The notes beneath the pieces are model-generated. The model was not told the origin of the DNA, made no database searches, and was given only the letters and a program-made list of their open reading frames with translations. Shown one piece after another: positions 1,253-17,175 of a DNA stretch of 59,264 nt. This DNA comes from a virus. Taxonomy: Duplodnaviria; Caudoviricetes. Positions within the stretch are counted from its first letter, which is position 1, and each line of letters starts with the position of its first letter. A program made the translations under genes and the position numbers. The DNA lies in the IMG/VR virus record IMGVR_UViG_3300036832_000931, positions 1-59,264 of that record; one strand, given 5' to 3'.

Positions 1253-1319
1253 TGTGTCCCCTCCCTTGTTGTTTCACCGCTACTGCGCGGGAACCCTTAC
1301 TCACATAAATTGTAGATGC

Positions 1320-1526
1320 TCATGCACCGCGGCGCTTCGTGCGGCGAGCTTCCTTATATTGTTTGCCGAGCGTGGACTGGCATTGCTTGCATTTATGCTG
1401 AAAGCCGCGTTGCCTATGCCGATAAAGCTCAAACGCGCTGGTCGGTAGAGTCTTCTTGCATTGATTGCACAGCCGCGTCGTCTCTGTGGAGTAGTCGTCC
1501 CAATTAAACTGGCCGAGATGTATCAT
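1320..1526 (-). CDS. Small zinc-finger protein (CxxC...CxxC)
   Basis: CNQC...F...CKQC pattern like the Zn fingers of HNH/EndoVII-type phage proteins; start overlaps the upstream stop. Confidence 0.55.
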   Translation of the reverse strand: MIHLGQFNWDDYSTETTRLCNQCKKTLPTSAFELYRHRQRGFQHKCKQCQSTLGKQYKEARRTKRRGA

Positions 1527-2647
1527 CTATATATACGCCGCTGCTGGTGCGGCTGACGCTTGTGATTCCACCCATGCGGGGCCTTGACCGCACTTACCGC
1601 AGTGGCACCGTTCTGTACGTTTACCGTGGTATACGCATCCGGCCACCCAATCGGCAGGTCATTCCCCTGCGACAATCCACACGTATAGGCCGTCGCTGTT
1701 AGGACATGGGTACCATTGTTGACCTTTACCGTCGTATCCCACATCCACGGCCCCTGCCCCGGACTACAGGTCAGAAAGCCCATGTCGCTGCTGAGACAAG
1801 CGTAAAAACACACACCAGGATTACCGGAATGTGCCAACTCTACCTTTACCTGACCAGAGACCGTCGTACCTTGTTTGGGACTGCTTATATACAGCGCCGG
1901 CAGCCACGGCTTCTCTGCCATCAGCTGATGTACCCGGTCGATATACGGTAGCGCCCCCTCGTCATACCAGTTACCGCTGTACCAGCTACCCAGACAGCCA
2001 TCACTCATCTCCTGCGCCGTACCGTTGGGATATTGCGGATAACCATGACCCGGAACCTTATCCCCGTAATACTTGATCTCCCCGTTCATACACGCCCGCC
2101 AGTACGAACCCCTGAAGTCGAGCGCGAACGGAGTGCTCTCATACGCCATCGGACACGCATTATAGTTGGTACATTTGATCTGAATTATGCTGTATGACGT
2201 GTAGCAGTAGCCTGCCGGTTGCCACGCATCAAAGCCGTTTCCTCCCGTACAGAGGTCGTGCTCGAACTCGTCGTCCCCCTTGACCGACTGATTCCACCCA
2301 CTCTCATTCCACGCCTGCGCCCTTAACTGCTCTACATCCATCCCCCACTTACACGCCGCCCACTGTATGACCTCGTCGGTGGTCCCCCTGAAGTTCCCAT
2401 CGACGCGAAAAAAGGAAGATGCCGGAGGACCATTAAATTGTAACGGGTTGGCGTAGAACGGCGCTAATTCCCCCGTCGTCGGTATCCGCTGATTGTAAGG
2501 ACTGTTCTGCCCCTTGGTCTCCGGCCGGGGCTGTACCTTGGCCGCACATTCCGCCCCCGACGGTAATGCCCCATTAGGCGGTACAAACTGTGCCCACGCT
2601 CCACTCGCGGTTAACAATAATACCGCGATTATCGCCAGTATCCTCAT
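1523..2647 (-). CDS. Secreted lytic-transglycosylase-like protein with C-terminal Ig-like domain (candidate endolysin)
   Basis: Likely start MRILAIIAVLLLTASGAWA (signal peptide, GGGGAGGG RBS); WAACKWG...RAQAWNESGW SLT-like Glu-Ser motif; ISSPKQGTTVSG...WDTT..NGTHVLTATAY Ig-like tail. Confidence 0.65.
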   Translation of the reverse strand: MRILAIIAVLLLTASGAWAQFVPPNGALPSGAECAAKVQPRPETKGQNSPYNQRIPTTGELAPFYANPLQFNGPPASSFFRVDGNFRGTTDEVIQWAACKWGMDVEQLRAQAWNESGWNQSVKGDDEFEHDLCTGGNGFDAWQPAGYCYTSYSIIQIKCTNYNACPMAYESTPFALDFRGSYWRACMNGEIKYYGDKVPGHGYPQYPNGTAQEMSDGCLGSWYSGNWYDEGALPYIDRVHQLMAEKPWLPALYISSPKQGTTVSGQVKVELAHSGNPGVCFYACLSSDMGFLTCSPGQGPWMWDTTVKVNNGTHVLTATAYTCGLSQGNDLPIGWPDAYTTVNVQNGATAVSAVKAPHGWNHKRQPHQQRRIYR

Positions 2648-2687
2648 TGCTGCCCTCCCCTTTGCCGAGCTTCGTTTCACCGCTTTA

Positions 2688-2864
2688 TTACGCGGGAACC
2701 TTGGTCTTACGCTCCTCGTCATTGATGCGCTGGTCTATACCCGCCATCCGGTACCCCAACTGATTTAAATACTTGTACAGCCGCAGACGCTGCAGCTCCC
2801 CCGCATCCTCCACCCACACCCTCATCAACTCCTCATCCGCCTTATCAATCTGCTGCCAGCTCAT
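2688..2864 (-). CDS. Hypothetical protein
   Basis: MSWQQIDKADEE... after a G-rich RBS; ends KVPA* with the stop inside a repeat-hairpin copy. Confidence 0.5.
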   Translation of the reverse strand: MSWQQIDKADEELMRVWVEDAGELQRLRLYKYLNQLGYRMAGIDQRINDEERKTKVPA

Positions 2865-2957
2865 AACGGCCCCCCTGCTTATTTTGTACTCCTCTACAGG
2901 GGCGGTGAAAATGAACGCTTGACTAATTGTGAGCGGAAGCTTAGAGGGTTGATGCAT

Positions 2958-3446
2958 GGTTCCTGCGTACTACGGCAGTGAAACTTATTCGGGTTCTCGC
3001 GTATCAGCGATGAAACCTTCGTCGACAATGTCACGGTTCCTGCGGTTGAGCAGTGAAACTCAGCGCGCTCCCGGCTCCTGCGTATCAGCAGTGAGACCCT
3101 TCGCTTTTGTTCATCGGTTCTCGCGTACCCAGCGATGAAACTTTTGAAACTGGATGGTTCCTGCGTGTTAGCAGTGAAACGCTTCCTGGGGCGGCGAACG
3201 GTTCTCGCGTATTCAGCGATGAAACTCGCAAGCTTAACTCCCCGGCTCCCGCGTACCGGCGGTGAGACCCTTCGTCGCTTATGGTTCCTGCGTTTGAGCG
3301 GTGAAACTGATGCCGACGCGAAATGTTCTACTCGGTTCCTGCGTGTTAGCAGTGAAACCCTGATCCAGTCAAAATGTCGGTTCTCGCGTACTTAGCGCTG
3401 AAACTGATGCGCGCCTCGATGGCTCCTGCGTTACCAGCAGTGAGAC
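2958..3446 (+). CRISPR. Compact CRISPR-like array: 12 truncated (25-27 nt) repeat hairpins with 7-26 nt spacers
   Basis: Copies start at 2958, 2992, 3035, 3073, 3116, 3156, 3200, 3244, 3283, 3334, 3379 and 3421. All match the 3' part of the 37-nt repeat beside the cas gene. Confidence 0.85.
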
Positions 3447-4028
3447 AGGGCTGGATATGCGTCGGGAATTGTTTGGCGCGTAGGGCTGAGGGAATGTACG
3501 CATATGCATATGCTCTCGAGAGGAAGGGCTAGGGGTGGGGTGGCTTAAGGTATCCCTACAAGCCTATAGGTACCATTCCCTGACTGACTAGGACTAGCAG
3601 ACTGAGACCTGACCGTTAGCTAGGCTAGCACAGGGTCAAGCTAACGTTTGCGGGGCTTTCGTGGCTTGTGTGCTTGGCTTGTGTCATCAGTCAGGTCAGC
3701 TAGGCAATCAATCAGATAGGTCTCAGGGAAGTGTCTACTCGAGTAGGTCCACAAAGCTAACCGGCTCCGTCTCAGGTTGATCCAACCTTGCCCTTGCCAA
3801 AAGCGCGCGCGATTGAGCCCACAGTTTCGTACGGATAAGAATTTCGCCACATATCAATATTAAACAGCAAGTTCGGTTTTCCTAATCTAACCTGACCCAC
3901 AACCTCGCGACATTTTTTGGTGCAAAAAAACGCGAGTGGGTTGACTGCAGGTTAATTATAGGCTTCCCTTATACTTTACTACCATTTACTATAGCTAGCG
4001 GTTCGACAAGCTTTTAGGAGATAAGGGA

Positions 4029-4355
4029 ATGACAAAAGGCGATCGGATAGTTGTTTTGACGGGTTCACAAGCGGGTCAGTCAGGCGAAGTGATCGAAGTA
4101 ATTGTGGATATGGTTAAGGTCCGCTTGTATGGACGAGAGGGGCTCACGATCGATTATGTCACTCCTACCGACAATGTGATGCTGCGCAGCTGCCTAGTTT
4201 GTGGCGATGCTGACCATCATGGGAATGAGCCCTGTTGCCCCGCATGTAGACATCACAACGCGTTGTTAGGTGCATATGCTGATCAGGGTCAGGTCTACCC
4301 GACGCGGGTCTTAAAATGCCGCGATTGCGGTTATGTCCAAGATATTCGGCGATAA
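4029..4355 (+). CDS. KOW-motif protein with Cys-rich C-terminus
   Basis: KGDRIVVLTGSQAGQSGEVIEV fits the KOW consensus; CLVC, CCPAC and CRDC motifs; strong AGGAG/TAAGGG RBS. Confidence 0.6.
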   Translation: MTKGDRIVVLTGSQAGQSGEVIEVIVDMVKVRLYGREGLTIDYVTPTDNVMLRSCLVCGDADHHGNEPCCPACRHHNALLGAYADQGQVYPTRVLKCRDCGYVQDIRR

Positions 4356-4385
4356 GGAGAGTTAAGGGACAATGACTAGAAGGAT

Positions 4386-4442
4386 GAGTGGACCCGGGGC
4401 AAGCCCCGGGTTTAAATGGCGGGTCAGGTCACAAGCCCTGAC
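4386..4442 (+). repeat. Two-hairpin intergenic element, copy 1
   Basis: GAGTGG-ACCCGGGG(CAAG)CCCCGGGT-TTAA...GTCAGG(TCACAAGC)CCTGAC; near-identical to 4729-4784. Confidence 0.8.
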
Positions 4443-4485
4443 AACTACAAGCTGACTGATAATCAATTTGTCGTAAGGAGACATC

Positions 4486-4722
4486 ATGGCAATCATCACA
4501 ACCGATTTTGTAGCGTACACAGCATCTAAAATGTTGGATAAGGCAAAGCGGAACTATCAACGCGCATTGACCAACCATAACAAGCAACAGTCAATCGGCG
4601 AAACTGATATGTCAGTCAAACAGACGAGACGTATGGCATTAGCAGTATCAGCATTGTCTCGAGCATCATTCCGCTTGCATGATTGCGAAAGGGTTATGTT
4701 GCGGTTGCTCAATCAGCGCTGA
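4486..4722 (+). CDS. Hypothetical protein
   Basis: 78 aa ORF with a TAAGGAG RBS. Confidence 0.6.
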   Translation: MAIITTDFVAYTASKMLDKAKRNYQRALTNHNKQQSIGETDMSVKQTRRMALAVSALSRASFRLHDCERVMLRLLNQR

Positions 4723-4728
4723 CCTGCA

Positions 4729-4784
4729 GAGTGGACCCGGGGCTCAACCCGGGTTTAATGCGCAGTCAGGTCACAAGCCCTGAC
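4729..4784 (+). repeat. Two-hairpin intergenic element, copy 2
   Basis: GAGTGG-ACCCGGG(GCTCAA)CCCGGGT-TTAA...GTCAGG(TCACAAGC)CCTGAC. Confidence 0.8.
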
Positions 4785-4825
4785 CAACGCAAAATTCAAT
4801 TTCCCGCTAAGTGAGGGAATCTGGA

Positions 4826-5554
4826 ATGAGACAAAAGGGTTTTATCAAGGGCGCGGGTATTCTCTATGAGAATAGCCAAGTTGTAGTTATTGCAACTGGG
4901 GCTAATGGGTCTCGTAAAAGCCGGAACGTTAAGACGGGTCACATGGCGCAAATCTGGATTCTAGTCAAAGCAGTAGACCCGGTCACTGCTGTTAAGACGG
5001 GGCTAGATAAAGCAGTTTGTTTCAATTGCCCCTATCGTGGCGATGAGGGGCTTGATCGGGCTTGCTACGTCACAACCTATGATCTTGCACGGGCTCCGGG
5101 TTCTATCTGGAAAGCCTACCGACGCAATCGCTACGAACACATCACAACCTCAGGTCAGATTGCCAAACTGTTTGGCGATGCTGCAGTCAGATTTGGGGCT
5201 TACGGTGAGCCCGTCTTAATTCCATTGCCAACCATCAAGGCGATAACTGAAGTGGCTAAAACTTGGACGGGTTATACGCACCAATGGAAGCGGGTCAAAT
5301 ATTTGGCTTATCGGCGTTATCTGATGGCTTCAACCTCAGAGACGGATTATCAGCAAGCCCAATCGTTGGGTTGGAGAACATTCTCAGTATCAGCAACAAC
5401 CCTGCAGGGTCAGATAGTTTGCCCTGCTAGTGCGGAACGGGGGCACAAGCTCAGTTGTGAAGAGTGCGGCTTGTGTGCCGGCACAACCCGGGTTGCTAGA
5501 AGCGTACAGATTGCCCCGCATGGGTCAGGGGCTAAATATGCTGCAGCTGCTTAA
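4826..5554 (+). CDS. Conserved Cys-rich phage protein (Gp88-like, possibly Fe-S binding)
   Basis: NVKTG...VCFNCPY...CYV...RFGAYGEP...WTGYTHQW...LMAS...GWRTF...CPAS...CEECGLC motif series. Confidence 0.6.
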   Translation: MRQKGFIKGAGILYENSQVVVIATGANGSRKSRNVKTGHMAQIWILVKAVDPVTAVKTGLDKAVCFNCPYRGDEGLDRACYVTTYDLARAPGSIWKAYRRNRYEHITTSGQIAKLFGDAAVRFGAYGEPVLIPLPTIKAITEVAKTWTGYTHQWKRVKYLAYRRYLMASTSETDYQQAQSLGWRTFSVSATTLQGQIVCPASAERGHKLSCEECGLCAGTTRVARSVQIAPHGSGAKYAAAA

Positions 5555-5735
5555 GCAGTTGCTCGAGACCCTGCAGGGTCCACTCTGCAGGGTGCTAAAG
5601 CCCCTCGCGATTTTTGGCGGGCCCGGGAAAAAAACATCGCCAGGGCTAAAAATGTCGCGAGGTTAAAAGCAAGATTTAAGCAAGCTGGCGGGACTTTTTT
5701 TTCTAAAGCAAGTTTTCTAATAAGGAGAGAGCAAG

Positions 5736-6167
5736 ATGTCAGTATCTATCAAACAGCAAGTGATCGAGTATCTCGAGCGCAACGGGTACAAGTTCGACCC
5801 GGGATATAAAGGGCACAAGTACCGTAAGCTGATCCATGATCGGTATGAACCGATCTACGTTGGCCACACGGGGGCATTTAGGAAGGGTTCTACCATCGCT
5901 GACAGCATCTCGATCACTGATAAGCTCAGAGCGCTGTTGAGCTTGCCGGCATACGGTGAGGCCGGGGCTTGCGAGACCTGTGGCAGCACCGGGTATCGGG
6001 TCAATGCTCGCGTTGCGCGTGCCGCCGGTATAGCGGGCAAGTTGGCTGGTAAGCAAGGTACTGGGAGCAAGTCAGAATGTACCCGCAAGATATATCGTGC
6101 CGGTTATATCCAGGCTTGCTCCATACCATACCATTTACTATATTGGTGTAGTTCGATTGATGATTGA
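5736..6167 (+). CDS. Hypothetical protein
   Basis: 143 aa ORF with a TAAGGAG RBS and the AGCAAG start-associated motif. Confidence 0.55.
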   Translation: MSVSIKQQVIEYLERNGYKFDPGYKGHKYRKLIHDRYEPIYVGHTGAFRKGSTIADSISITDKLRALLSLPAYGEAGACETCGSTGYRVNARVARAAGIAGKLAGKQGTGSKSECTRKIYRAGYIQACSIPYHLLYWCSSIDD

Positions 6168-6183
6168 TAAGGGAGATCAGCAA

Positions 6184-6462
6184 GTGAACAAGCAAATGAT
6201 CGCGAGGTTGTCTGAGGCTTTCGTTGCCGGGTTGCGGCAAGAACTGACGCCTGCTCAATGGGCGCTCATGGCGGAACGCAACCGCTCGGAACAAAGCAAG
6301 AATATCTGCCACAGTCACGATTTTACCGATGCAAATATGGTGATGTCTGCTGCTTTCGAGCAGGCCGGCATTCCGCTGTGGACCGCGGGCGGACATCTCA
6401 GTGAGCAATCGATGGAATTGTGGAATGCGGCGTGGGCCAAAGCGGCCGCGCAACTACGCTAG
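6184..6462 (+). CDS. Hypothetical phage protein
   Basis: GTG start after TAAGGGAGATCAGCAA; contains CHSHDFTDANMVM..AF. Confidence 0.6.
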   Translation: MNKQMIARLSEAFVAGLRQELTPAQWALMAERNRSEQSKNICHSHDFTDANMVMSAAFEQAGIPLWTAGGHLSEQSMELWNAAWAKAAAQLR

Positions 6463-6492
6463 CAAGTTTTTACGATAAGGGAGATCAGCAAG

Positions 6493-6651
6493 ATGACGAT
6501 CCAGATAACAGAATTCGCCACGCAAGTGGCGCTCAGATCCTATGGCGAGGTGCGCAAAGCCTATCGCCGATATAAAGCAGACTGCGATCGTCTCGATCGT
6601 ACCGATAGGCTTGTACAAGCCCACAGAGTTAGCCGACGCAATTGTCGATGA
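6493..6651 (+). CDS. Small hypothetical protein (52 aa)
   Basis: Hand-translated MTIQITEFATQ..., preceded by TAAGGGAGATCAGCAAG-ATG. Confidence 0.5.
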   Translation: MTIQITEFATQVALRSYGEVRKAYRRYKADCDRLDRTDRLVQAHRVSRRNCR

Positions 6652-6885
6652 TTATAAGCCCGCGACATAAGCAAGTTTGGCGCTTCAAGAGAGTAAAGCA
6701 AATGACAATATTTCAGACCAGCGACGGCTATAAGCTCTGGCAGCATACGAGCGGAGACGGGCAAGTGGTATGGCGTGACAAGCCCTCCGGGGATCCCGAT
6801 TGGGATCTTGAGTTTGGCGATGATAAGGGTCACCCGATTGACGACCTGGGTGAACCGCTCGAGGGCTCCTTTGTGAGTTAAAAGC

Positions 6886-7056
6886 ATGACGCGGTTAACG
6901 ACATTAATCGAGATAGCGCTCGGCATCCTGGTCGTTGTGCTGGGTATTCAGGCACCAATATGGATGAACCTCGTCAGACTAAACGGGCAAGTTGCCCAGA
7001 TGGGGGTTCAAGTGTCGCAAATAAACAGCAAGATTGACCAGTTGAATCGTCAATAA
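6886..7056 (+). CDS. Small membrane-anchored coiled-coil protein (56 aa)
   Basis: Hand-translated MTRLTTLIEIALGILVVVLGIQAPIW...VSQINSKIDQLNRQ. Confidence 0.45.
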   Translation: MTRLTTLIEIALGILVVVLGIQAPIWMNLVRLNGQVAQMGVQVSQINSKIDQLNRQ

Positions 7057-7095
7057 AGCGTGAAGAGCAAGTTTCCCATTAAGGAGGGAGGCAAG

Positions 7096-7257
7096 ATGTT
7101 CTACCTCAATATCAAGTCTATATCGCCACCGTTCTACCAGATGCGGTTGTATCGTACCTCGCGGCAACTGTATCAGGTGCAGTTCGAGAACGGTGCTGCA
7201 ATCACCGTCACTGATACCGGTCGCATCGTTGCGCTGGTATATGGGCAAAGCAAATGA
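7096..7257 (+). CDS. Small hypothetical protein
   Basis: ATG after TAAGGAGGGAGGCAAG; stop overlaps the DUF29 start (ATGA). Confidence 0.5.
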   Translation: MFYLNIKSISPPFYQMRLYRTSRQLYQVQFENGAAITVTDTGRIVALVYGQSK

Positions 7258-7712
7258 AGGACTATCACGCATGGTTGCTGGAACAGGCTGCGGCGCTGCG
7301 CCGCCGTGACATCGAAGCGCTCGACTGCGACGAGCTGGCTGAGGAGGTGGAGGGGATGGCAAGGACCGCGCGCCACCATATAAAAGTGGGACTAAGAACG
7401 ATCCTCGAACATCTAAGCAAGCTGGCGTACAGCAAGCCTACCCATCGCCTGTGGCGCGCAGCTATCAGCCGCTCCCGCGATACTATCAAGCTGCTGCTCG
7501 AAGAGTCACCAGGGCTCAGACAGTACCTCGATGAATATAGAGTCAAAGGCTATCGCCGCGCTCGTCGTCTGGCCGGTGAGTCCTTGGGCTGGGAACGCAA
7601 GCAATGGGAAGCCAACCTCCCAGCCGAGTGCCCGTGGACGCTCGAGCAGATCCTTGATGAGGATTTCTTCGCCGACGGTGACAATGACGGCGACTGGATC
7701 CCGATATTTTAG
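7254..7712 (+). CDS. DUF29 family protein
   Basis: DYHAWLLEQAAALR...LD..ELAEEVE...ILEHL.KL...LLEESPGLR...CPWTLEQILDEDF. Confidence 0.85.
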   Translation: MKDYHAWLLEQAAALRRRDIEALDCDELAEEVEGMARTARHHIKVGLRTILEHLSKLAYSKPTHRLWRAAISRSRDTIKLLLEESPGLRQYLDEYRVKGYRRARRLAGESLGWERKQWEANLPAECPWTLEQILDEDFFADGDNDGDWIPIF

Positions 7713-7731
7713 CCGATAAGGAGAACAGTAA

Positions 7732-7899
7732 TTGAGCGACGTCGCCACCAAAAACGATCTGCGCGAGCTCGAAGCGCGGCTCGAGAGCAGCCTCAAAAGC
7801 ACTATCATCAACACCATGATCGCGCTCACCGCCATTTATGGCGGAATTACCGCCGTCGCGATCACCGTATTGACGCTCGTATTCAAGAAAGTAATTTAA
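7732..7899 (+). CDS. Small DUF1640-like membrane protein (55 aa)
   Basis: TTG start after TAAGGAG; VATKNDLRELEARL followed by a hydrophobic helix. Confidence 0.55.
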   Translation: MSDVATKNDLRELEARLESSLKSTIINTMIALTAIYGGITAVAITVLTLVFKKVI

Positions 7900-7901
7900 G
7901 T

Positions 7902-8129
7902 TTGCAAACCCCAACCGATTTGGATTATTTACTACAACAAGTTACTGGCATGGATAAGGACGTATTTTCTAATAAGGGAGAATGCCCGTTGGACATGGAT
8001 TCTTTCAACGCTGAAACGACGGTCATACTGTCCAAGATCTTCCGCCACTACCTTCGGTGGACCATCGGGTCAATGGTCGCAATCGCCAGCATTGCCTTGG
8101 TTATAGCGAAGATATTATGGAACCACTAA
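7902..8129 (+). CDS. Small membrane protein (true start probably further downstream)
   Basis: C-terminal hydrophobic helix WTIGSMVAIASIALVIAKILW; internal TAAGGGAG RBS. Confidence 0.45.
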   Translation: MQTPTDLDYLLQQVTGMDKDVFSNKGECPLDMDSFNAETTVILSKIFRHYLRWTIGSMVAIASIALVIAKILWNH

Positions 8130-8326
8130 AAATGACCGCGGCTGAACACGTCTGGGTTGAGCAGCAGCTGGCCGAGACCCGCAAGTTTATTGCGGAGCAA
8201 AACAAGCTGAACGCCGAACGGCAAAAGTCTGAGCGGGTATGGTGGTGGGTGCCGTTTATTCTGGTCGCTGGGAATATCGTGCTGAGTGCTCTGATCGGTG
8301 CCCTCGTGGGGCACTTCGTCAAATAG
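8057..8326 (+). CDS. Small coiled-coil plus membrane protein (start uncertain)
   Basis: LAETRKFIAEQNKLNAERQK followed by WWWVPFILVAGNIVLSALIGALVG. Confidence 0.5.
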   Translation: MDHRVNGRNRQHCLGYSEDIMEPLKMTAAEHVWVEQQLAETRKFIAEQNKLNAERQKSERVWWWVPFILVAGNIVLSALIGALVGHFVK

Positions 8327-8394
8327 TTACGTCATGAAGAGAGTCAGCAGGTCTGATTCCTCATCGTCAGTGATTTTCAGGTAGGTCAGCATCG

Positions 8395-8541
8395 ATGCGG
8401 TCGGAGCTCTGGAGAGTGTTGTTAGCGTTTGTGCTCGGTGTAGCCGTGTTCTGCGGTGCGGTGTTCGTCGTCTCGCACTGGATACTGCCAGCACCGGCTC
8501 ATCAGGAGATCTACGTTCATATCTATCACGATAAATCGTGA
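8395..8541 (+). CDS. Small membrane protein (48 aa)
   Basis: Hand-translated MRSELWRVLLAFVLGVAVFCGAVFVVSHWIL... Confidence 0.4.
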   Translation: MRSELWRVLLAFVLGVAVFCGAVFVVSHWILPAPAHQEIYVHIYHDKS

Positions 8542-8559
8542 GGAGAGAAATACTATAAA

Positions 8560-9207
8560 ATGTTATTTGGATTTACTAAAAATGAACTCTGTCTGATCTG
8601 CGATTGCCTGCACGGTACGCTCAGCAATCCGTCACAGGATCGTGATGGTGGTCGCCGCTTTATCCTCGATCAGGTGACGGAATTTATCCGCACCGAGAAG
8701 GCAGATGAGAAGTGGGATGTCGCCAGGACCACCATACTCGAGAAGATCGAGACGCTCGACGGCTGGCACTCGCAGCTAATTCTGGGATGCGTCAAGCGTT
8801 TCTGGGAGCTCACCGGTCAGTCCAAGGACTATGATGCTGAGGAGCTGCTGCGTAAGGCAGGCTTCGATACTCCGACCGCCTACCTGATGAACTCGGCCGT
8901 CATTCCGTCGGGTACCTCGGGCACCTACCGTTACACTTGGTATGCGGAGACGGATGGTACGCTGGCGAGATTTATCAAGGACAAACATCCAGTCTCGCGG
9001 ATTGGCTATGCCGATGCCTGCGACATGGTCCAGGACATGAGCGGCGGTTATCGGCCGCGGCTCTCCCGTTCTGCTGCGCTCATCGAACCCGGGGACTGCG
9101 CGATGGTGATCAGACTGAAGTACCGCCTCGCTGATACCGGTCCCAAGAGAGTGCGGATGAAGAATAAAGAAGACTATGAGATCGGGCTGCTCGAGCGGCT
9201 GGATTAG
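8560..9207 (+). CDS. Two-domain protein with C-terminal DUF1874/YddF (AcrIII-1 ring-nuclease-like) domain
   Basis: C-terminal YLMNSAVI..G.Y...SRIGY...SR....PGDCAMVIRL..R...YEIGLLERLD follows the DUF1874 pattern (LNS, SxIGH, NR, GD.A, LLxRLD), with Tyr in place of the His. Confidence 0.55.
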   Translation: MLFGFTKNELCLICDCLHGTLSNPSQDRDGGRRFILDQVTEFIRTEKADEKWDVARTTILEKIETLDGWHSQLILGCVKRFWELTGQSKDYDAEELLRKAGFDTPTAYLMNSAVIPSGTSGTYRYTWYAETDGTLARFIKDKHPVSRIGYADACDMVQDMSGGYRPRLSRSAALIEPGDCAMVIRLKYRLADTGPKRVRMKNKEDYEIGLLERLD

Positions 9208-9209
9208 TT

Positions 9210-9353
9210 ATGTCGCTTAGTGAGTACCTCGATGCGCGATTACGTCGAGCCGAGATCGAAATCATTATTGCCACCATCATGATTGTCGGGCTGGGCGATG
9301 CTGCGTTGTTCTGGGGGCTCTCGATACTTCTGCAACACAAGTTTCACTGCTAA
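9210..9353 (+). CDS. Small membrane protein (47 aa)
   Basis: Hand-translated MSLSEYLDARLRRAEIEIIIATIMIVGLGDAALFWGLSILL... Confidence 0.4.
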   Translation: MSLSEYLDARLRRAEIEIIIATIMIVGLGDAALFWGLSILLQHKFHC

Positions 9354-9417
9354 TGCGCAGGAACCTTGTCATCTATTATCAAATGTTTAGCGTCTGCACA
9401 AAGGCGGTTAGAAGCTG

Positions 9418-9726
9418 ATGAGTGACAACCATCAAGTGGAATTTGTTACGCGCGAGGAATTGCGCGGTGAACTGAGAGAGCTGCGTGGGGAATTTCACAC
9501 GATGCGCAGCGAGGTGCGTGCCGACCTCAAGGACATGCGTGGCGAGTTGAGCAAAATGCATGATGGGCTGAACACCATGCACGGTGAATTGCGGACGCAG
9601 ACGCACTGGATGATGGGCATTCTCGTGACCATTGCCGTGGGCCTCGCCGGGATCGCGTATGGCACCTTACGACTGAGCGTAGGTCTGAAACCACCAGCAA
9701 CAACAAGCTCTAGTACCTTACGATGA
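9418..9726 (+). CDS. DUF1640-like heptad coiled-coil membrane protein
   Basis: FVTREELRGELRELRGE heptads, then WMMGILVTIAVGLAGIAYG helix. Confidence 0.6.
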   Translation: MSDNHQVEFVTREELRGELRELRGEFHTMRSEVRADLKDMRGELSKMHDGLNTMHGELRTQTHWMMGILVTIAVGLAGIAYGTLRLSVGLKPPATTSSSTLR

Positions 9727-9986
9727 AATACTTACGCGCAAGCTCTGACGGCATGTGGATGTTGTTCTTCCCCGTCCTATCGCTCTTCTTCGTGATCTTC
9801 ATCCTCGTTATTACCGATGATGACGGCGTCTCGCGCAAACAGGAGGTTAAAGCGTGCGACATTGCCGTGCAGCAGCTGATGACCACTCATGATCTCGTCG
9901 AACTCCAGCGCGATGAATGGCTGATACATCACTTGCGTTGTTGGGTCACTCGGCGCGCAGTGCCGATACTGGTTCCTGCGAAATGA
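9723..9986 (+). CDS. Small membrane protein
   Basis: N-terminal hydrophobic helix; ATGA overlap with the upstream gene; stop inside repeat copy 9971-9996. Confidence 0.5.
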   Translation: MKYLRASSDGMWMLFFPVLSLFFVIFILVITDDDGVSRKQEVKACDIAVQQLMTTHDLVELQRDEWLIHHLRCWVTRRAVPILVPAK

Positions 9987-10025
9987 GCAGTGAAACGAAT
10001 AAGCGGTTAATAAGGGAATACTCTA

Positions 10026-11444
10026 ATGAGAAAAAGGAAAAGAGACTGGCCGATGAGGGTGATCAAGATTCGTGCGTATCCGAGAGTGATCCCGGATAGC
10101 GTCTGGGCGATCGCGAAGGACCAGAGAAAGCTGTGGAATGATTTGACCAGTATGTGGAAGGCGACCGCTGATCTGGCGGCCAACCTGCCTGAGCAGAAAA
10201 AAGAAATGTGGAAACAGTTTGAGGACTGGGCGGCAGCGGCCGTTAAACTGTCCGGCCTCGACTGGGTTAATGGACCGGATATTTTAGATAGATTGCGTGC
10301 TACCACGCGCTCGCGCAAACAGGCTCCACGCTTTCATGGTGCGCTGCAAAGGGTGTCGATCGGGCACAGATATACCGGCGGCGGGAAGGCTCTGGAGGAG
10401 GTGATTGATCCAGGCGTTCAGGTCAGACGATTCGCCTTGGTCTCATCGAAGGACTGGATCGCCTCGCAGCGCTCACAGATCGGTCAGCATTCGCCCAAGC
10501 GCAAGCATTGGCGCGGCCGCTTCCAGGTCGGTGAAGAGACGATTGAGTACTCGTTGGCGCTTCATCGCGAGCTGCCTGAGCGCGCGATTTTGAAGCGTGT
10601 GGCATGGCTGGGTGAGCGCAGTGGCCCGACATGGTTTTGGTACTTGGCGCTCACGGTGGAAGAAGAGCCGGTACAAGGTTCCTGCGTGACGACGAGCAGT
10701 GAAACTACAAGCTCTGCCGCTATCGACCTGGGCTGGCGGTTATTTGCCGATGGGACCAAACAGGACCGGCTGCGGGTCGGCATGCTGGCTGATTCCGAGG
10801 CGCGCATGATCGAGCTGCGGTTGCCGCTGCGCCTGCGGCCTAACCGCGTTCAGGAACAGCGCGGGCTGGATACCATCGCACAGTGGCAGGCCGAGGCTTC
10901 CAAGCTCGACAAGAGCTCTGACGAGTACCGCATGCTCACCCGCGAGATGAGACAGTTACGCTTTCGCTTAATCCAAAGGCGCAGATGGTACTACCTCAAT
11001 CTCGCCAACTGGCTCTGTCAGCGATACAAGCGGATTGCGCTCGAGGATATGAGCATCAAGGATCTGCATCGTAAGCCGGATGATCCCGCCTTGCAGAATA
11101 GCGCGCAGTATCGCAATTACGCGGCGATTGGGGAATTCCGTGCCCTGCTCCTGCGCACCGCCACCAAATACGGCTGCGAGGTCATTCCCGTCGATTCGAT
11201 TGACTCGACCAGGACGTGCTGGGAATGCGGAGCCAAGGCCGAGGCGAGTGGGCACCTGACGCTTAAATGCGAGAACGGGCACGAATGGGATCAGGATAAA
11301 AACGCCGCTCGTAATCTGTTCTCGCAACTGGAGGGGACTTTCGGGCAGACACACAGTTTGCGAAAAATAACGACTACTGGTAAGTGGAAACGATTGGAGT
11401 TGCCGGAGTCTATTGGAGCGGTTGCAGTTGAGGTTCCTGCGTGA
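10026..11444 (+). CDS. cas12: Compact type V CRISPR effector (TnpB/Cas12 superfamily, Cas12m/V-U1-like)
   Basis: RuvC-I AAIDLGWR, RuvC-II IALEDM, Zn finger CWEC...CENGH, RuvC-III WDQDKNAARNL. LHRELP..A.LK...W.L.LTV and LRVG motifs resemble Cas12m. Directly abuts a CRISPR array. Confidence 0.85.
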   Translation: MRKRKRDWPMRVIKIRAYPRVIPDSVWAIAKDQRKLWNDLTSMWKATADLAANLPEQKKEMWKQFEDWAAAAVKLSGLDWVNGPDILDRLRATTRSRKQAPRFHGALQRVSIGHRYTGGGKALEEVIDPGVQVRRFALVSSKDWIASQRSQIGQHSPKRKHWRGRFQVGEETIEYSLALHRELPERAILKRVAWLGERSGPTWFWYLALTVEEEPVQGSCVTTSSETTSSAAIDLGWRLFADGTKQDRLRVGMLADSEARMIELRLPLRLRPNRVQEQRGLDTIAQWQAEASKLDKSSDEYRMLTREMRQLRFRLIQRRRWYYLNLANWLCQRYKRIALEDMSIKDLHRKPDDPALQNSAQYRNYAAIGEFRALLLRTATKYGCEVIPVDSIDSTRTCWECGAKAEASGHLTLKCENGHEWDQDKNAARNLFSQLEGTFGQTHSLRKITTTGKWKRLELPESIGAVAVEVPA

Positions 11445-12003
11445 TGAGCAGTGAAACCGATAAGCAGAGCATCGCAGGCAACCGGTTCTCGCGGTTGCAG
11501 TGGAGGTTCCTGCGTGACGAGCAGTGAAACTTGGGTACGGCGACTTCGATGAAGTACAAATCAAAGGTTCCTGCGTTACCAGCAGTGAAACAGGCCATCA
11601 GGAGTTCCTCGATTTTCTCGCAGCCCTGAGTTGCAGTAGAGGTTCCTGCGTAATGAGCAGTGAAACTACTAATCCTGCTCAGTGCGGCCTGCGAATGAGC
11701 ATTGAGGTTCCCGCGTACGGGCGGTGAAACAATGAACAAACAGTTTCGATCAAGATTGTCATCACAGTTGGTGGTTCCTGCGTAATGAGCAGTGAAACAG
11801 CTGGAGATCACGCAGCTTGAGGTTCGTGCGTAAGGGCGCTGAAACTAGAAGCACAAGATGGTTCGCGCGTAAGGGCGCTGAAACTCATACACGGTCGAAT
11901 CGGTTCCCGCGTACTGGCGGTGAAACAGAGAGCCGTTTCAGGGTTCCCGCGTGTGGGCGGTGAAACAGGAGAAATGAGGTTCCTGCGGATACAGCAGTGA
12001 AAC
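11421..12003 (+). CRISPR. CRISPR array, 11 repeats; full repeat GTTGCAGTNGAGGTTCCTGCGTRAYGAGCAGTGAAAC (37 nt), shortening distally
   Basis: Full repeats at 11421-11457, 11494-11530 and 11630-11666; core-only or degenerate copies at 11566, 11706, 11773, 11821, 11860, 11902, 11942 and 11978. First spacers are 35-39 nt. Confidence 0.9.
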
Positions 12004-12853
12004 TCCTAGACAGAAGCCGGTTCCTGTATCTGCCAATCTCCGCAGTCGTCTTGGTTGGAGTCCAGCAGCACGCCACTCTGCTTTTTACCTTCGCGCAGAT
12101 GCTCCCGGATACGGTCGAACATCAGCTCCAGCTCGCGGTCACGGTCGCCGCGCTTAAACGCCTTACTCTCCAGGTCGATCGTTATAACTAGCTCCACGCT
12201 ACTGCACCTCAAGTTTTCTTGCCGTTGTACTCCCAAGTCTGCCGGCCGAGTTTGCCGCGATGCTGATGGCAGAGACCCTGGGTCTTGCATTTGTCGCAGG
12301 CCAGCACCGACAGCATCACTTCCCGCCCCTCCTGTAAATCCATCAGCGCCGCCGCCACGGTGCCCGGAGGCGGCTCATCCCCGTAATGCCCCACCAGCTC
12401 CAGCAGCCCCTTCAGTGCACGGTTGCTGCACCTCACCGCAATAATCCCAGCCAGCCCGCCGCCAAGCCCGTCATAAACGCCGCCATCTCGAGAGCCGTCA
12501 CTCGCCACCCTTGAGCAGAAGCGCCATCACCCTCACCGCATCGCGCGGGTCCAGATCGAGTGCCATCAAACGGTCGGATAGCCAATCGCGTAAAGCTGGT
12601 TCCAGCCACTGCGCGACCCGCTGCACTTCTTCTTCGCTCATCCGATCTTCTAGATGCAGATCTTTCATGGTTCACCACCCCACCTCATTTTGTAGAAGTG
12701 AACTATAGTGGTTGAGTGATCTTTATTGAGCGAGTGAAATTGTCACCGCAGAGCTCAATTATTTGGTGAATTTTGACGTGAGCTGTGGACTAATCATGCG
12801 AACTTAGCGTGGTAGGTTCGTAAGTTCGCATCTTTTATCCCCAGAAGTGAAAC

Positions 12854-13288
12854 ATGAAAACGTACGAAACCGATTACTTCGCGTGGGCCAACCACCAAGT
12901 CGCGCTGCTGCGCAGCACCCAGCCCGAGTGGCTCGACTGGAAGAATCTGGCTGAGGAGGTGGAGGACTTGGGGCGCAGCGTGCGGTTTAGCGTGGAAAGT
13001 CACCTCGAGAACGTGCTGGTGCATCTGCTCAAGGCGCGCTACCAGCCCGCCCGGAGCAGCCGCAGCTGGGAGACCTCGGTGCTCAACGCCCGACTGCGCA
13101 TCGAGCGGCTGTTGCGCGAATCGCCTAGTTTGAAGGCGAGGCTGCCGGAGGCGCTAATGGAAGCCTACCGGCTGGCGCGAGGCGAGGCTGGTAGCCAAAT
13201 GGGCATGGACCGCCGACAGTGGGAGGCGACTCTCCCGCCAACTTGCCCGTGGAGGCTGGCGCAGGTGTTGGGGGATGAGCCGCTCTGA
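12854..13288 (+). CDS. DUF29 family protein (second copy)
   Basis: YETDYFAWANHQVALLR...LDWKNLAEEVEDLGRS...LVHLLK...SW..S....R......SPSLK...CPW.L.QVL. Confidence 0.9.
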   Translation: MKTYETDYFAWANHQVALLRSTQPEWLDWKNLAEEVEDLGRSVRFSVESHLENVLVHLLKARYQPARSSRSWETSVLNARLRIERLLRESPSLKARLPEALMEAYRLARGEAGSQMGMDRRQWEATLPPTCPWRLAQVLGDEPL

Positions 13289-13300
13289 GCAGTGAAACGA

Positions 13301-13609
13301 CTACGCCGACCTCTGCCAAATACGACGAGCCTCCGGACTCATCACGATCCGCGTGGCTTCGCTCCTCGTTATTCCCAGATCCATCAGTAAGTCGATGGAC
13401 ATGGTCGCTATCGCCGAGTGCGCCAGTGCCCGCCGTTCCTCGATGGGCAGCTGGTTACAACGCGCGCATATCCCACCCGCGTCCACTTCCTCAACATTCA
13501 TTCCGAAGCGCTGTTTGAACAAGTCTGCGGCTTCTGCGGTGAACCGCTGTGGCGTGACATCCTTGCTGCTACCACACAGAAGACATTTGATTGATGCGCC
13601 GAGCTCCAC
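13301..13609 (-). CDS. Hypothetical Cys-motif protein
   Basis: CLLC...CARC; GAGGAGG RBS. Confidence 0.5.
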   Translation of the reverse strand: MELGASIKCLLCGSSKDVTPQRFTAEAADLFKQRFGMNVEEVDAGGICARCNQLPIEERRALAHSAIATMSIDLLMDLGITRSEATRIVMSPEARRIWQRSA

Positions 13610-13745
13610 CAGTTTTCCTCCTCTTTTTTCGTCTGCAAATTTCGCTCAGGTATTAGCAATTTAAATAGGTGAAATCTTTCTCTTACATAGCTGCGATTCG
13701 ACGATTCTATAGCGTCTTATAGCGACACGACCTTTATTAGTTAAA

Positions 13746-15302
13746 CTAATGGCTTTCTTCCCCAAAAATACCCCCCTGATCGTCGTGGCTGGCGAGGATG
13801 TAACCAGTCGCTCTACCCTTCCCGTGGCGGTTGACCAGATGCTCTTTCACAGCCTGCCTGAGTCCCGCGAGGATCCAGTCTGCGCCCTTCCCAGTATGGT
13901 TGATGAGCTGAGCCTTGGTCGAGCCTCCCCCGAGCGCCTGTAATGCTTCGATGACTGAAGGCATTGCTACCCGTCCCCTGTGCTCACTGAACAAGCCACC
14001 CAGCGTTATCAGCCGTGTCTTCTCATCGAAGAGAACAAGCTCCTCCTTTAATACGCCAGTATCGCCATAACCGCCTTTACCAGTGACAAAAGCATTTACG
14101 CCGCTCGACTTGCGTCGGACCACCATTCGCATGCGATGCTGCGCCGTCCAGGCCGTATGCCCCGCAAACGCTTCCTCTGGATCACGCGGGTCGAGTGCTT
14201 TGGCCTCACTCTTCGGCGCGTGCCCCGTGACCAGTCCGCTGAAGTTGCGTTGACGTACGCACTCGAGCAGCGGATTCTGCTCGTTCATCGTAATCCGGTT
14301 GGTATCGCCAGAGTTATTGGGTGGCATCCCAAAAAAGTCGAAGAGAGTATCGAGGATAAAGGTCTTGCAGCCCAGCTTGTTCATCCAGTAATCGAACCAC
14401 TCCACCGCCTCCTCGGTGAAGCGGAAATGTGCTTTGCTCGACTCAACGATGTAGATAACTTCTTTGAGTTCCCAAAACCCGATATTCTCGCTCCACGCCT
14501 CGAACTCCTTGGCGGATACCACGACCAGCGTCTTGGACTGGCGGCACTTCCGCCCCAGCACCTCCGCTCCGAGCGCCCAGGCGCGAGCGAAGTTCATCGC
14601 CATCGTGGATTTGCCGCTGCCTATCAGGCCGGTCAGCACCGCTGAGCAGCCGTCTCTGATCAGTCCTTCCACCGAGTAGTCGCGACTGTCCGCCCGCATG
14701 GCCTCGTACGCCGCGTAAGCGTCGATTGGAGCGCGTTGTTCGAAGGCGGCTAGCTTCGGGTCCACCTTCGCCGGCAGCTGAGTCTTTTTGACCGGGACGA
14801 TCAGGCGGGAGATCCCCTCCAGTTCACCTCGTACATGCTCTCCGTCCAGCCCCTCCGGCACTGCGTAGCCGGGAACCTGCGTCACGAGCATCTCAAGGGA
14901 CTGCGTGAGTTGTTTGAAGAGCTCATCGCCCTCGAGCTTCCGCAGAGTCTGGTCCTGGACCATCATGCTCTCAGCGACCTGATAGACCCGCGCATTCCAG
15001 CGCAGCAGATTGGCTTGGAACTCATCCTCCTGCTCATCCGCTCCCGGCTCCCTGAGTACAACCTCCTGACGCGGCGGCGGTGGTGGCAGCGCTGGCGGGT
15101 CTTCCAGCAGCCGTGCGAGCGCAGCCGCTACAGCAGACGGCCGGAAACAACTTGGACAGTTAAACTTCAGCTCATCGCCATTGATGATGACGTAAGCATT
15201 CTTGGCTTCACATAACGGACAGGTGAACTCGAGACGGTCTGGCCGTCCGTTGCGATGCCCATCGGGAAGACGTGTTAGTAATTGATCGACGTTAGCCATC
15301 AA
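13746..15302 (-). CDS. Replicative helicase-like AAA_25/RepA-type ATPase with N-terminal Zn-binding domain
   Basis: CPLC...CPSC N-terminus; Walker A GLIGSGKST; Walker B FILDT; GHAPK; C-terminal wHTH-like segment. Confidence 0.75.
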   Translation of the reverse strand: MMANVDQLLTRLPDGHRNGRPDRLEFTCPLCEAKNAYVIINGDELKFNCPSCFRPSAVAAALARLLEDPPALPPPPPRQEVVLREPGADEQEDEFQANLLRWNARVYQVAESMMVQDQTLRKLEGDELFKQLTQSLEMLVTQVPGYAVPEGLDGEHVRGELEGISRLIVPVKKTQLPAKVDPKLAAFEQRAPIDAYAAYEAMRADSRDYSVEGLIRDGCSAVLTGLIGSGKSTMAMNFARAWALGAEVLGRKCRQSKTLVVVSAKEFEAWSENIGFWELKEVIYIVESSKAHFRFTEEAVEWFDYWMNKLGCKTFILDTLFDFFGMPPNNSGDTNRITMNEQNPLLECVRQRNFSGLVTGHAPKSEAKALDPRDPEEAFAGHTAWTAQHRMRMVVRRKSSGVNAFVTGKGGYGDTGVLKEELVLFDEKTRLITLGGLFSEHRGRVAMPSVIEALQALGGGSTKAQLINHTGKGADWILAGLRQAVKEHLVNRHGKGRATGYILASHDDQGGIFGEESH

Positions 15303-15721
15303 CCCCCCCTCCGGTTCTGTCTATCTACTCAGGTTTTACCTTGGTGCCAAATGATCACCCGTAAAAAACGGGTGCGCGGATTTTACTACACACAAACGAT
15401 CACACAAATCTCCTTCGTCATTTGATCGTCTATCTAAATGCCTAGATTTATTGAATAATAGAGAAGAGGGCCGATAATGACCCTCTTCTGGACATGCTAA
15501 CAATCTGTTACATAAGTCTACTATGTAGTAGTAGACCGTTTGCGGCGGGTAACTTCTGCTATCAACAAGTGGACAGCCGGTTAATCCTGACTTAGCACTA
15601 CTTGACTTGCCATCCATCGACCACGCCCTCTACCGCCACGGGCAAAATTTCGGGCAAACCACCACACCCACTTGTGTCACCTATCCCGATTCGGCAGAAG
15701 GTCTTCACTGCTCACACTCAG

Positions 15722-15913
15722 TCAGCTCAGCCCGCCCGGTTTGACCCGACGCTCATCGATGAACCGCTCGAGCGCGGCGGGATCATAGCGCACGCGCTTG
15801 CCGAGCTTTATATACTCCGGCCCTTTTTTTTCGAGCCTCCATTTTTGAAGACACTGAACGGTCACGCGGAGGATCCCTGCCACTTCGCGCTCAGACATCA
15901 AGTCGGTCGTCAT
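15722..15913 (-). CDS. Excisionase/AlpA-like HTH protein
   Basis: MTTDLMSEREVAGILRVTVQCLQKWR...GPEYIKLGKRVRY; GGGAGGGG RBS; adjacent to the integrase. Confidence 0.85.
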   Translation of the reverse strand: MTTDLMSEREVAGILRVTVQCLQKWRLEKKGPEYIKLGKRVRYDPAALERFIDERRVKPGGLS

Positions 15914-17099: not shown

Positions 17100-17175
17100 C
17101 CTCTTCTTCTCCTTGCGGTTATTTCTCTATTTTCTAGTGGTCTGAGCTGAGGTTTCACTGCTAATACGCAGGAAC

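Follow-up and report, generated by a model that had tools for sequence, protein, structure and literature searches.

Twelve truncated CRISPR repeat handles clustered in a soil phage that encodes a compact Cas12m-like protein

Introduction

What might a tandem run of CRISPR-type handles do in a phage genome when it lies well away from the only cas-like gene? The question is raised by a cluster of hairpins near one end of a viral contig from IMG/VR, linear, 59,264 bases long and estimated to be 63% complete, which was analyzed whole and is called the window here. The contig belongs to a soil tailed phage with genes for a portal, a major head protein, tail fibres, a DNA methyltransferase and an integrase, and it also encodes a RecT-like protein with an exonuclease. 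In a preliminary description of the sequence, the cluster had been taken for a second, orphan CRISPR array giving short guides for binding rather than cleavage, or else for a multivalent sponge RNA.

Cas12m silences by binding DNA, and a normal array supplies the crRNAs that guide it. A phage with three full and 64 stripped handles would appear either to have recruited a CRISPR effector onto its own transcripts or to harbor a repeat core that proliferates like a mobile element. Either reading, if true, bears on how, in the absence of Cas1-Cas2, TnpB guide RNAs give rise to arrays. It would also reveal how small a handle and a guide can be and still function with a 472-aa effector, a matter of practical value for the design of compact silencers. 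The question is directly testable with one protein and short RNAs.

The published work on Cas12m, drawn on here (as are the other papers) from the accessible parts of each source, describes an enzyme that binds DNA and leaves it uncut, with a guide of about 17 nt (PMC11013384; PMC10442227; 10.64898/2026.03.26.714355). Variants with D-E-D residues, too, bind without cutting (PMC11013384). In Cas12m2, the ordered scaffold has a non-canonical G.A pair at A(-2) and then six Watson-Crick pairs, the 5′ 7 nt of the scaffold are disordered and the heteroduplex is 17 bp long (PMC10442227). For PmCas12m, a preprint gives a mature crRNA with a repeat part of about 33 nt and a guide of about 17 nt; guides of 12–26 nt were tested, the optimum was 17 nt and processing occurs at 17 nt (10.64898/2026.03.26.714355). 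Mismatches in the first 12–14 nt abolish activity (10.64898/2026.03.26.714355; PMC11013384). A protein of 610 aa was termed the first phage Cas12m in a preprint of September 2026 (10.64898/2026.09.14.751636).

We found no paper describing Cas12m handles dispersed over a phage genome. The closest accounts in print are of solitary repeat units, mini-arrays and RNA anti-CRISPRs. As far as the accessible text goes, solitary repeat units and mini-arrays number one or a few, in cas loci or close by, and an array of at least three repeats is a rarity among them (12 cases; 10.1101/2023.03.03.530964). RNA anti-CRISPRs (Racrs) are viral mimics of host repeats in the form of solitary repeat units; three examples of type V-A inhibit Cas12a (PMC10651486). 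The features of the window on which our argument rests are collected in Table 1.

Table 1. Positions of the hairpins, the effector gene and the candidate promoter in the window
Feature	Position	Strand	Basis
Cluster of 12 truncated Cas12m-type handles, 25–27 nt each, gaps 7–26 nt	2958..3446	+	structural scan
Weak -35/-10-like pair, TTGACT-17 nt-TAGAGG	2919..2947	+	by eye; below scan-tool threshold
Single handle, 29 nt upstream of the ATG of the Cas12m-like gene	9971..9996	+	scan
Compact Cas12m-like protein P0001, 472 aa	10026..11444	+	profile, Foldseek
Handle with 10-nt loop, in frame in the Cas12m-like gene (GSCVTTSSET)	10677..10705	+	scan
Cas-adjacent array, 12 hairpins, 3 with the full 37-nt repeat (11421, 11494, 11630)	11421..12003	+	scan
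Cluster of 5 handles, gaps 16, 22, 148 and 16 nt	58917..59245	-	scan
Whole family, 67 copies with at most one defect	1271..59245	both	structure-aware scan

Anatomy of the cluster

The structural scan recovered twelve tandem hairpins, starting at 2958, 2992, 3035, 3073, 3116, 3156, 3200, 3244, 3283, 3334, 3379 and 3421, the last ending at 3446, with exactly the gaps that had been reported before (7, 18, 13, 18, 14, 19, 18, 14, 26, 20 and 16 nt). Eight of the eleven gaps fall within 13–20 nt, and the start-to-start spacing is irregular, at 34–51 nt. The unit reads GGYTC, a 4-bp stem, a loop of 6–8 nt, the complement of the stem and TGARAC. It had been remarked that the repeats differ and still mostly keep the fold, and this is so: there are three sequence types, distinguished by a CTGC/GCAG stem, a TCGC/GCGA stem or a GGCTC..GAGAC outer stem, and there is a single stem mismatch, in the hairpin at 3379. 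Two of the three types are rare elsewhere on the contig. The 5′ GTTGCAGTNGA of the full repeat is absent from all twelve units, as the preliminary description had it, and full repeats are confined to the three places in the cas-adjacent array.

When aligned, the cluster resolves into three blocks of four hairpins each (2958–3115, 3116–3282 and 3283–3446), every one of which closes with the rare GGCTC...GAGAC type. The spacer at the equivalent place in the three blocks is 7, 14 and 26 nt long. The spacers have more words in common than expected: nine 6-mers against 2.2 (a count of nine is reached in 11 of 2000 shuffles) and 23 5-mers against 9.9 (9 of 2000 shuffles). The shared starts pointed out earlier, CTTCG in three spacers and TGATGC in two, are also there. 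Given the three-block alignment and the k-mers common to the spacers, the cluster therefore probably grew by internal duplication; the hairpins have since been maintained, with compensatory changes, and the spacers have drifted. Selection seems to act on the handles and not on the spacers or guides, because the spacers are paralogous, their lengths differ at equivalent places and the hairpins are intact.

The cluster begins beside the first ATG (2957) of the longest leftward ORF, and rightward genes start from 4029, which places it at a point of gene divergence, as proposed. From its end to the start of the Cas12m-like gene at 10026, the sole cas-like gene of the contig, there are 6580 nt, in keeping with the earlier figure of 6.6 kb. 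If a rightward transcript runs through the cluster, the weak promoter-like pair just upstream (Table 1) is a candidate for its start. The scan finds no promoter-like site at the cluster and no terminator-like site in 2500–4900. The ORFs that cover the cluster (2956–3138, 3135–3395 and 3374–3532) consist of hairpin units, and the fold of the whole cluster is no more stable than that of shuffled sequence (z 0.06). Tandem Repeats Finder, at a score of 30, lists nothing here; the prediction that standard finders would likely miss the cluster is a fair one for this program.

A canonical CRISPR array has near-identical repeats of fixed length, unique and uniform spacers of about 30–40 nt, and cas genes or a leader adjoining. 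Here the repeats vary between 25 and 27 nt, fall into three types and are without their 5′ 11 nt; the spacers are paralogous and range from 7 to 26 nt; and the cas-like gene is some 6.6 kb downstream.

The effector and the origin of the hairpin

Protein P0001 carries a Pfam Cas12f1-like TNB domain (E 7.9e-11). The protein collection contains 42 relatives of it, or 43 rows if P0001 is counted. Across 20 aligned sequences of the family, D234 and D424 are invariant, as are C398, C401 and C415, and E340 occurs in no fewer than 90%. The family conserves the RuvC residues D234, E340 and D424, an intact D-E-D triad, and a Cys zinc finger, both expected of a type V-M effector. Compared with the PDB, the family profile matches Cas12m 23vw_A at E 7.7e-56 over residues 27–471, UnCas12m4a at 1.6e-33, Cas12m2 at about 2e-15 and TnpB at about 5e-11; the solved Cas12m chains thus match far better than TnpB or Cas12f. 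For the AlphaFold2 model (pLDDT 84.1), the top four Foldseek matches are Cas12m2 (8hhm, 8hhl and 8hio) and GoCas12m (8pm4), with TMq of 0.58–0.66. In sequence and in predicted fold, the effector is of the Cas12m kind.

The full 37-nt repeat consists of GTTGCAGTNGA followed by a hairpin, and the 26 nt after GTTGCAGTNGA are the dispersed hairpin. The first full repeat encodes the last codons of P0001 (VAVEVPA*, the conserved C-terminus being AVAVEVPA). Because the full repeat is built in this way and its first copy encodes the C-terminus of the gene, the dispersed element can be identified by sequence as the 3′ 25–27 nt, or core, of this system's own CRISPR repeat. In the cas-adjacent array, the proximal gaps measure 35–49 nt and the distal ones 22, 14, 17, 15 and 11 nt. 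The ORF preceding the Cas12m-like gene ends inside the handle at 9971–9996, and the handle within the gene sits in a variable linker before RuvC-I.

The system resembles type V-M (Cas12m2 8hhl, 8hhm and 8hio; GoCas12m 8pm4; 23vw) in the profile and fold of its effector, in an array that starts from the gene end and in having no Cas1 in the contig. The repeat may also be of the crRNA-only type, its predicted 3′ helix with a G.A pair next to the guide resembling the one in the text of PMC10442227. It differs in the size of the effector (472 aa against about 580–610 aa in Cas12m), in the ratio of three full to 64 truncated repeats, scattered over the genome at junctions and within genes, and in a cluster whose spacers are short and paralogous. 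The truncated unit appears to keep a G.A pair and a helix like those that make up the ordered core of the Cas12m2 scaffold in the accessible text (PMC10442227). It is without 11 nt of the full repeat, and its 26 nt compare with about 33 nt for the repeat part of the PmCas12m crRNA in the preprint cited above.

Pairing in the hairpin has been maintained by selection. The element is built of an outer GGUUC/GAAAC helix, in which a G.A pair is invariant, then a bulged U and then an inner stem of 4 bp; in order, the pairs are G2.A(-2), then U-A, U-A and C-G, the bulged U, and four more pairs, with covariation. Over the 67 copies (60 distinct rows in the alignment), 99.6% of cells pair against 93.9% in shuffles, a level that none of 500 shuffles reaches, and 33–49% when the partners are slid. 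Compensatory changes on both sides are seen at three of the eight pairs. The G.A and the bulged U are conserved and never repaired, the G that opens the loop is likewise conserved, and the loops differ in nearly all copies. Single hairpins are weak, at -6 to -10 kcal/mol. Strong conservation with so little stability suggests a motif that is read by a protein and not a hairpin that stabilizes or terminates a transcript.

A terminator or stabilizer hairpin was considered in its own right and rejected, there being no T-run, no terminator-like site in the interval scanned and only a weak folding energy. Rfam at the gathering threshold has no match on the hairpins; its only matches in the contig are two Twister-P5 ribozymes, away from them. 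No tRNA was found in the contig.

Dispersal over the phage

The family extends over the contig in copies of 25–29 nt. Three are full-length 37-nt repeats and 64 are truncated, and 55 copies of the hairpin lie outside the cluster at 2958–3446. To call this cluster a second, orphan array is hence misleading, as it is one of at least three large clusters: its own 12 copies, the densest grouping of the family, 12 more at 11432–12003, and five at 58917–59245, where the run stops 19 nt from the contig end and may continue beyond. Elsewhere the copies occur as singles, pairs and triples. A narrow exact pattern has 51 matches on the contig and its reversed control has none. A scan for the flanks only returned 66 sites, 64 of which have a perfect 4-bp inner stem (CTGC/GCAG in 37, CCGC/GCGG in 18, TCGC/GCGA in 5, GCGC/GCGC in 2, and a G.U pair in the remaining two). 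At the third outer position, 62 sites have U-A, 4 have C-G and none has a mixture. Window-wide, 17 of 31 pairs of neighboring hairpins are 13–20 nt apart.

ORFs of at least 80 aa take up 88% of the contig by a greedy call that includes spurious ORFs over the arrays, and 41 of the 67 copies are outside them. At no fewer than ten junctions the hairpin starts between -1 and +4 nt from the upstream stop codon. Several ORFs end within a hairpin, with the next start codon 9–67 nt further on, and at dozens of junctions handles precede ribosome-binding sites and start codons. In-frame copies, not all read in the same frame, are found in the Cas12m-like gene and in two structural genes; those in the structural genes encode GSRVNGAET and GFPRIGGET, in place of a variable linker when compared with a syntenic phage (L195, below). 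Direct repeats of at least 5 nt flank 24 of the 67 copies against 12.7 expected, a count that none of 500 controls reaches; examples are GTTTAGACC at 41328 and GAGGTTA at 37089.

The copies are zoned by strand. Those on the + strand run from 2958 to 33361 and those on the - strand from 36565 to 59245, together with 1271 and 2674; the exceptions are the - strand copies at 9341 and 17152. For the most part the hairpin is on the strand of the gene: by the neighboring gene, 3 of the 67 are antisense (9341, 15955 and 33337), and the copy at 17152 reads in the sense of the integrase gene. The - strand late block at 22369–34287 has zero sense copies at about 11 junctions and one antisense copy, and this lone copy keeps the + orientation in a block that is head-on to it. 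The hairpin strand flips at the extremes of the cumulative GC skew, a minimum at about 3 kb and a maximum at about 33–34 kb; GC skew on the contig largely tracks the gene strand. A degenerate 68th copy at 56013 (+), not counted among the 67, is inverted within its - strand cluster.

Relatives of the effector and of the phage

Relatives of P0001 are encoded in seven viral and 80 metagenome loci, the latter being the best 80 of 228 confirmed. The closest homologs (P0002, P0010 and P0013) are about 50% identical and come from contigs of 10–46 kb; over the wider set P0002–P0016, identity is 43–51%. A 16-mer test was applied to 42 of the 87 loci, a hand-picked set comprising every long locus and eight short ones. 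It detected a CRISPR-like array in the 3 kb downstream of 18 and an unrelated 22-nt tandem repeat in two; in the other 22 it found none. The 18 arrays start at or just after the gene end and have periods near 71–76 nt. Behind a homolog of 32% identity (L119) is a seven-repeat array whose repeat has the same GGTTC...TGAAAC design. Arrays of relatives also combine canonical and short units. One of them (L158) has 36 units spaced 46–118 nt, with 5′-degenerate repeats, short spacers and duplicated spacers. Another locus (L193) has about 41 hairpins of its own, from a different repeat and with covarying stems, over 9.5 kb behind a 714-aa homolog, and the run is interrupted by an IS605-type tnpB.

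The window's own hairpin is scarce elsewhere. Its covariance model gives eight hits in 789 kb of 89 loci (the 87 that encode relatives and two from bacterial MAGs, L074 and L091), and in none of them is it dispersed. No other IMG/VR contig has the exact hairpin pattern. A looser pattern matches 63 IMG/VR contigs once each, which was taken as chance. The two MAG loci contain the same full repeat, as mini-arrays of two repeats 74–75 nt apart and not dispersed. With P0001 as the query, no homolog was found in the repeat-bearing MAGs (the best E is 7e-4, in one of three genomes), and the window proteins have no match to the surroundings of the mini-arrays. Against GenBank phages, a megablast of positions 1–20000 and a blastn of both arrays returned nothing.

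A syntenic relative of the phage (L195) has counterparts of 15 window proteins at 28–73% identity, including the portal (55%) and the major head protein (73%). The hairpin model finds no hairpin in it (the top score is 10.6 bits, E 1.2). Of its 26 junctions, 19 overlap or span 15 nt at most. At the junction before the homolog of 37114–38187 there are 12 nt from stop to ATG in the relative, and two hairpins plus 21 further nt in the window. Since the syntenic phage is without hairpins and its junctions are tight, the hairpins are, by this comparison of sequences, additions specific to the lineage of the phage studied here.

A proposed multivalent cluster of handles

We tentatively favor the view, plausible and yet far from secure, that the cluster is a transcribed, multivalent set of handles bound by the Cas12m-like protein of the phage, and that it is one instance of a phage-wide practice of putting handles to use on RNAs of the phage itself. 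The cluster would be transcribed rightward as an untranslated RNA of about 490 nt, each of whose 12 handles would take up its fold and recruit the Cas12m-like protein, and the transcript might be cut to units of crRNA size (a handle and about 16 nt). It would act by the number of its handles, as a multivalent sink or loading platform that sets the level of free effector, and not by the content of its spacers. The single and paired copies at junctions could let the protein bind or cut the polycistronic RNAs of the phage. We infer, rather than observe, the transcription, the binding of truncated handles and any effect on expression.

Several findings support this view: the identity of the hairpin with the repeat core, the kinship of the effector with Cas12m, the pattern of a protein-read motif and the apparent selection on handles. 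The unit size does so as well, in that the 13–20-nt gaps of more than half of the neighboring pairs approximate the 17-nt Cas12m guide in print. So do the lineage-specific addition of hairpins, the second case of many hairpins behind a homolog (L193) and the irregular array of another (L158). Of the two roles that had been suggested at first, a multivalent sponge RNA fits the evidence better than short guides do, with handle binding and transcription proposed from sequence.

Other findings count against it. The truncated handle is without 11 nt of the repeat, the scan finds no convincing promoter, and cutting at every copy would do harm where copies lie in coding sequence, that of the Cas12m-like gene included. 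The late block has no sense copy and one antisense copy, and in none of the 89 loci is the hairpin type of the window dispersed. The strand flip at the GC-skew extremes fits a DNA-level, replication-linked bias about as well as a transcript-level bias, and the excess of flanking direct repeats points to an insertion process rather than to function.

A more general form of this view, which we consider doubtful, makes the handle a cis-acting code on phage RNAs. The effector would mainly read hairpins, bind or cut RNA, and punctuate operons just past the stop codons; tandem clusters would be titrating sinks or timers, and handles would spread by a copying process that leaves short flanking duplications. 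A bolder variant, by analogy with the TnpB guide against an empty site, would have the handle make the next 17 nt of phage sequence a guide against co-infecting relatives that are without the insertion.

Other explanations

Could the cluster be a working minimal CRISPR array instead? Each handle with its spacer of 13–26 nt would then form a short crRNA that guides the Cas12m-like protein to silence the DNA of the host or of rival phages. An effector of the Cas12m kind is at hand, the enzyme binds without cutting and does best with 17-nt guides in the accessible text (10.64898/2026.03.26.714355; PMC11013384), the majority of the cluster gaps come close to this length, and arrays of relatives likewise mix canonical and short units. 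We nevertheless regard this reading as unlikely, and of the earlier proposal of short guides for binding it is the effector and the prevailing gap length that stand. The spacers are paralogous to each other and vary in length at equivalent places, one is just 7 nt long, and at dozens of junctions elsewhere the "spacer" that follows a handle is simply the next gene. A search of the phage itself and of GenBank phages found no target: there is no exact 12-mer match of a spacer in the phage, one-mismatch self-matches number 33 against 14.9 in mononucleotide shuffles (a lenient control) with none longer, and no spacer matches among GenBank phages. The contig is also without Cas1.

REP elements are short, imperfect, mostly extragenic palindromes in many copies. 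The guide scaffold of TnpB, the omega-RNA, overlaps the 3′ end of the nuclease gene, and the single-strand transposition of IS200/IS605 follows the direction of replication. A further idea is that of a selfish hairpin, REP-like or a miniature mobile element, that would descend from the transposon-end hairpin of a TnpB ancestor, spread at the level of DNA and pile up in permissive non-coding DNA such as this divergent region, leaving the cluster itself without a role. The window likewise has 67 short imperfect palindromes, 41 of them outside ORFs of at least 80 aa, and a scaffold that overlaps the 3′ end of the nuclease gene. The hairpins were inserted in one lineage at junctions that are otherwise tight, the copies within genes occupy variable linkers in different reading frames, short flanking direct repeats are in excess, cumulative GC skew reaches its extremes where the strand switches, and the lone copy in the late block retains its + orientation. 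Still, the copies are direct and clustered instead of forming inverted pairs, and their sequence is that of a CRISPR repeat core. The Y1 transposase that would move them (TnpA/RAYT; PF01797) has no match in the contig, in a search whose controls respond, the contig being 63% complete and an enzyme of the host being possible; and flanking duplications are not known as a feature of IS200/IS605. The loops vary with the stem, the G.A pair and the bulge kept, which argues for continuing selection at each copy. On balance we do not think it likely that the cluster is of this kind.

Solitary repeat units, mini-arrays and crRNA-like regulatory RNAs are repeats outside the main array, often degenerate, that in the accessible account are thought to recruit effectors for regulation or to inhibit them (10.1101/2023.03.03.530964; see also 10.1101/2024.10.29.618823), and the hairpins are like them in kind and unlike them in number, with 67 copies over 59 kb including a 12-unit cluster. 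The 64 truncated copies are repeat-like sequence on a virus outside a normal array, and in this they resemble Racrs, phage-encoded mimics of repeats that act by binding Cas proteins rather than by guiding (PMC10651486). The phage handles could by the same token be a decoy that soaks up a host Cas12m with the same repeat, and there is some encouragement for this in the inhibition of Cas12a by the three V-A examples (PMC10651486) and in the full repeat shared with two bacterial MAGs. Racrs copy the repeat of the host, however, as far as the accessible text describes them; here it is the phage itself that encodes the matching effector, the end of whose gene is fused with the first repeat, and the MAGs yielded no P0001 homolog with this query. 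A decoy against a type V-M system of the host is accordingly improbable.

A replication-origin element or other structural DNA site of the iteron-like kind is very improbable: the cluster does sit at the minimum of cumulative GC skew, where transcription diverges, but the skew largely follows the gene strand, the hairpins are irregularly spaced instead of regular and confined to an origin, the same hairpin is present at some 55 other places throughout the genome, including the inside of genes, and the replication-type gene (AAA_25, 13746–15302) is 10 kb off.

Distribution of the Hairpins

Short direct repeats are found on both sides of some hairpins (copies of the repeat handle) in the window. 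Examples are GAGGTTA (37089), GTTTAGACC (41328) and ACGATGA (54810), among others. Flanking direct repeats of at least 5 nt accompany 24 of the 67 copies, as against 12.7 expected, and it is possible that they are footprints of insertion.

The copies can also be considered by gene block. The head and packaging block (36565–59245) has 31 of them on the (–) strand, which also carries the tail-fibre and virion genes of the late block (22369–34287, –). In the late block the junctions are tight, and no hairpin copy was found there in the sense orientation; one antisense copy is present (33337–33361).

Hairpins and Arrays in Other Loci

A series of hairpins is also seen in L193, a metagenome contig encoding a 714-aa homologue of the effector, the Cas12m-like protein of the window. 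About 41 hairpins of the form GCGCAGAGGC..GT.TCTGCGAC, with covarying stems, are spread there over 9.5 kb, with start-to-start spacing ranging from 39 to 1418 nt, and an IS605-type tnpB lies within the series (Table). In L158, an array of 36 units follows a relative of the effector, the periods being 46–118 nt. The 5′-end of the repeat is degenerate in units that follow short spacers, and several spacers are duplicated (e.g., 8728/8807 and 9278/9635); these two features of the sequence suggest that the array grew by segmental duplication.

The full 37-nt repeat of the window recurs in mini-arrays of two bacterial MAGs (L074 and L091), one of them in a prophage-like setting (a weak small-terminase match and an S49 peptidase). 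A search of these MAGs with the window's protein as the query found no effector homologue.

Table. Features of the window and of other loci.
Feature	Position	Strand	Remarks
Twister-P5 self-cleaving ribozyme	window 4383–4440	+	Rfam RF02684, 46.7 bits
Twister-P5 self-cleaving ribozyme	window 4725–4782	+	Rfam RF02684, 56.8 bits
215-aa ORF	window 8560–9207	+	weakly matches Pfam PF08960 (STIV_B116-like), E 0.0063, under family cut-off
Hairpin series	L193 11114–20168	+	metagenome contig
IS605-type tnpB	L193 12241–13503	–	within hairpin series
36-unit array	L158 7543–10001	+	behind relative of effector
2-repeat mini-array, full 37-nt repeat	L074 1356–1466	+	bacterial MAG
2-repeat mini-array, full 37-nt repeat	L091 159–271	–	bacterial MAG

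Surroundings of the 12-Hairpin Cluster

A leftward ORF (2688–2957, –) adjoins the cluster, and its 3′-end, read by eye, falls within a hairpin (2674–2700). Its more likely start is not the ATG at 2957 but the one at 2866; a G-rich, Shine-Dalgarno-like run (also read by eye) precedes the latter. With a start at 2866, the non-coding DNA between the ORF and the cluster would amount to about 90 nt. Upstream of the cluster, AATTGTGAGCGGA (2925–2937, +), identical in sequence to a half of the lac operator of E. coli, lies between −35-like and −10-like hexamers.

Downstream of the cluster, in the early rightward operon, a small ORF (4486–4722) is flanked by two Twister-P5 ribozymes, both scoring over the Rfam gathering score of 37.6 bits. 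The 215-aa ORF precedes the Cas12m-like gene by 0.8 kb.

Size of the Effector

A segment of about 30–60 residues, present in the 19 other homologues of the alignment (A1, columns about 450–516), is missing from the window's protein after the position of residue 293. The lack of this segment accounts for much of the protein's small size (472 vs. about 494–626 aa).
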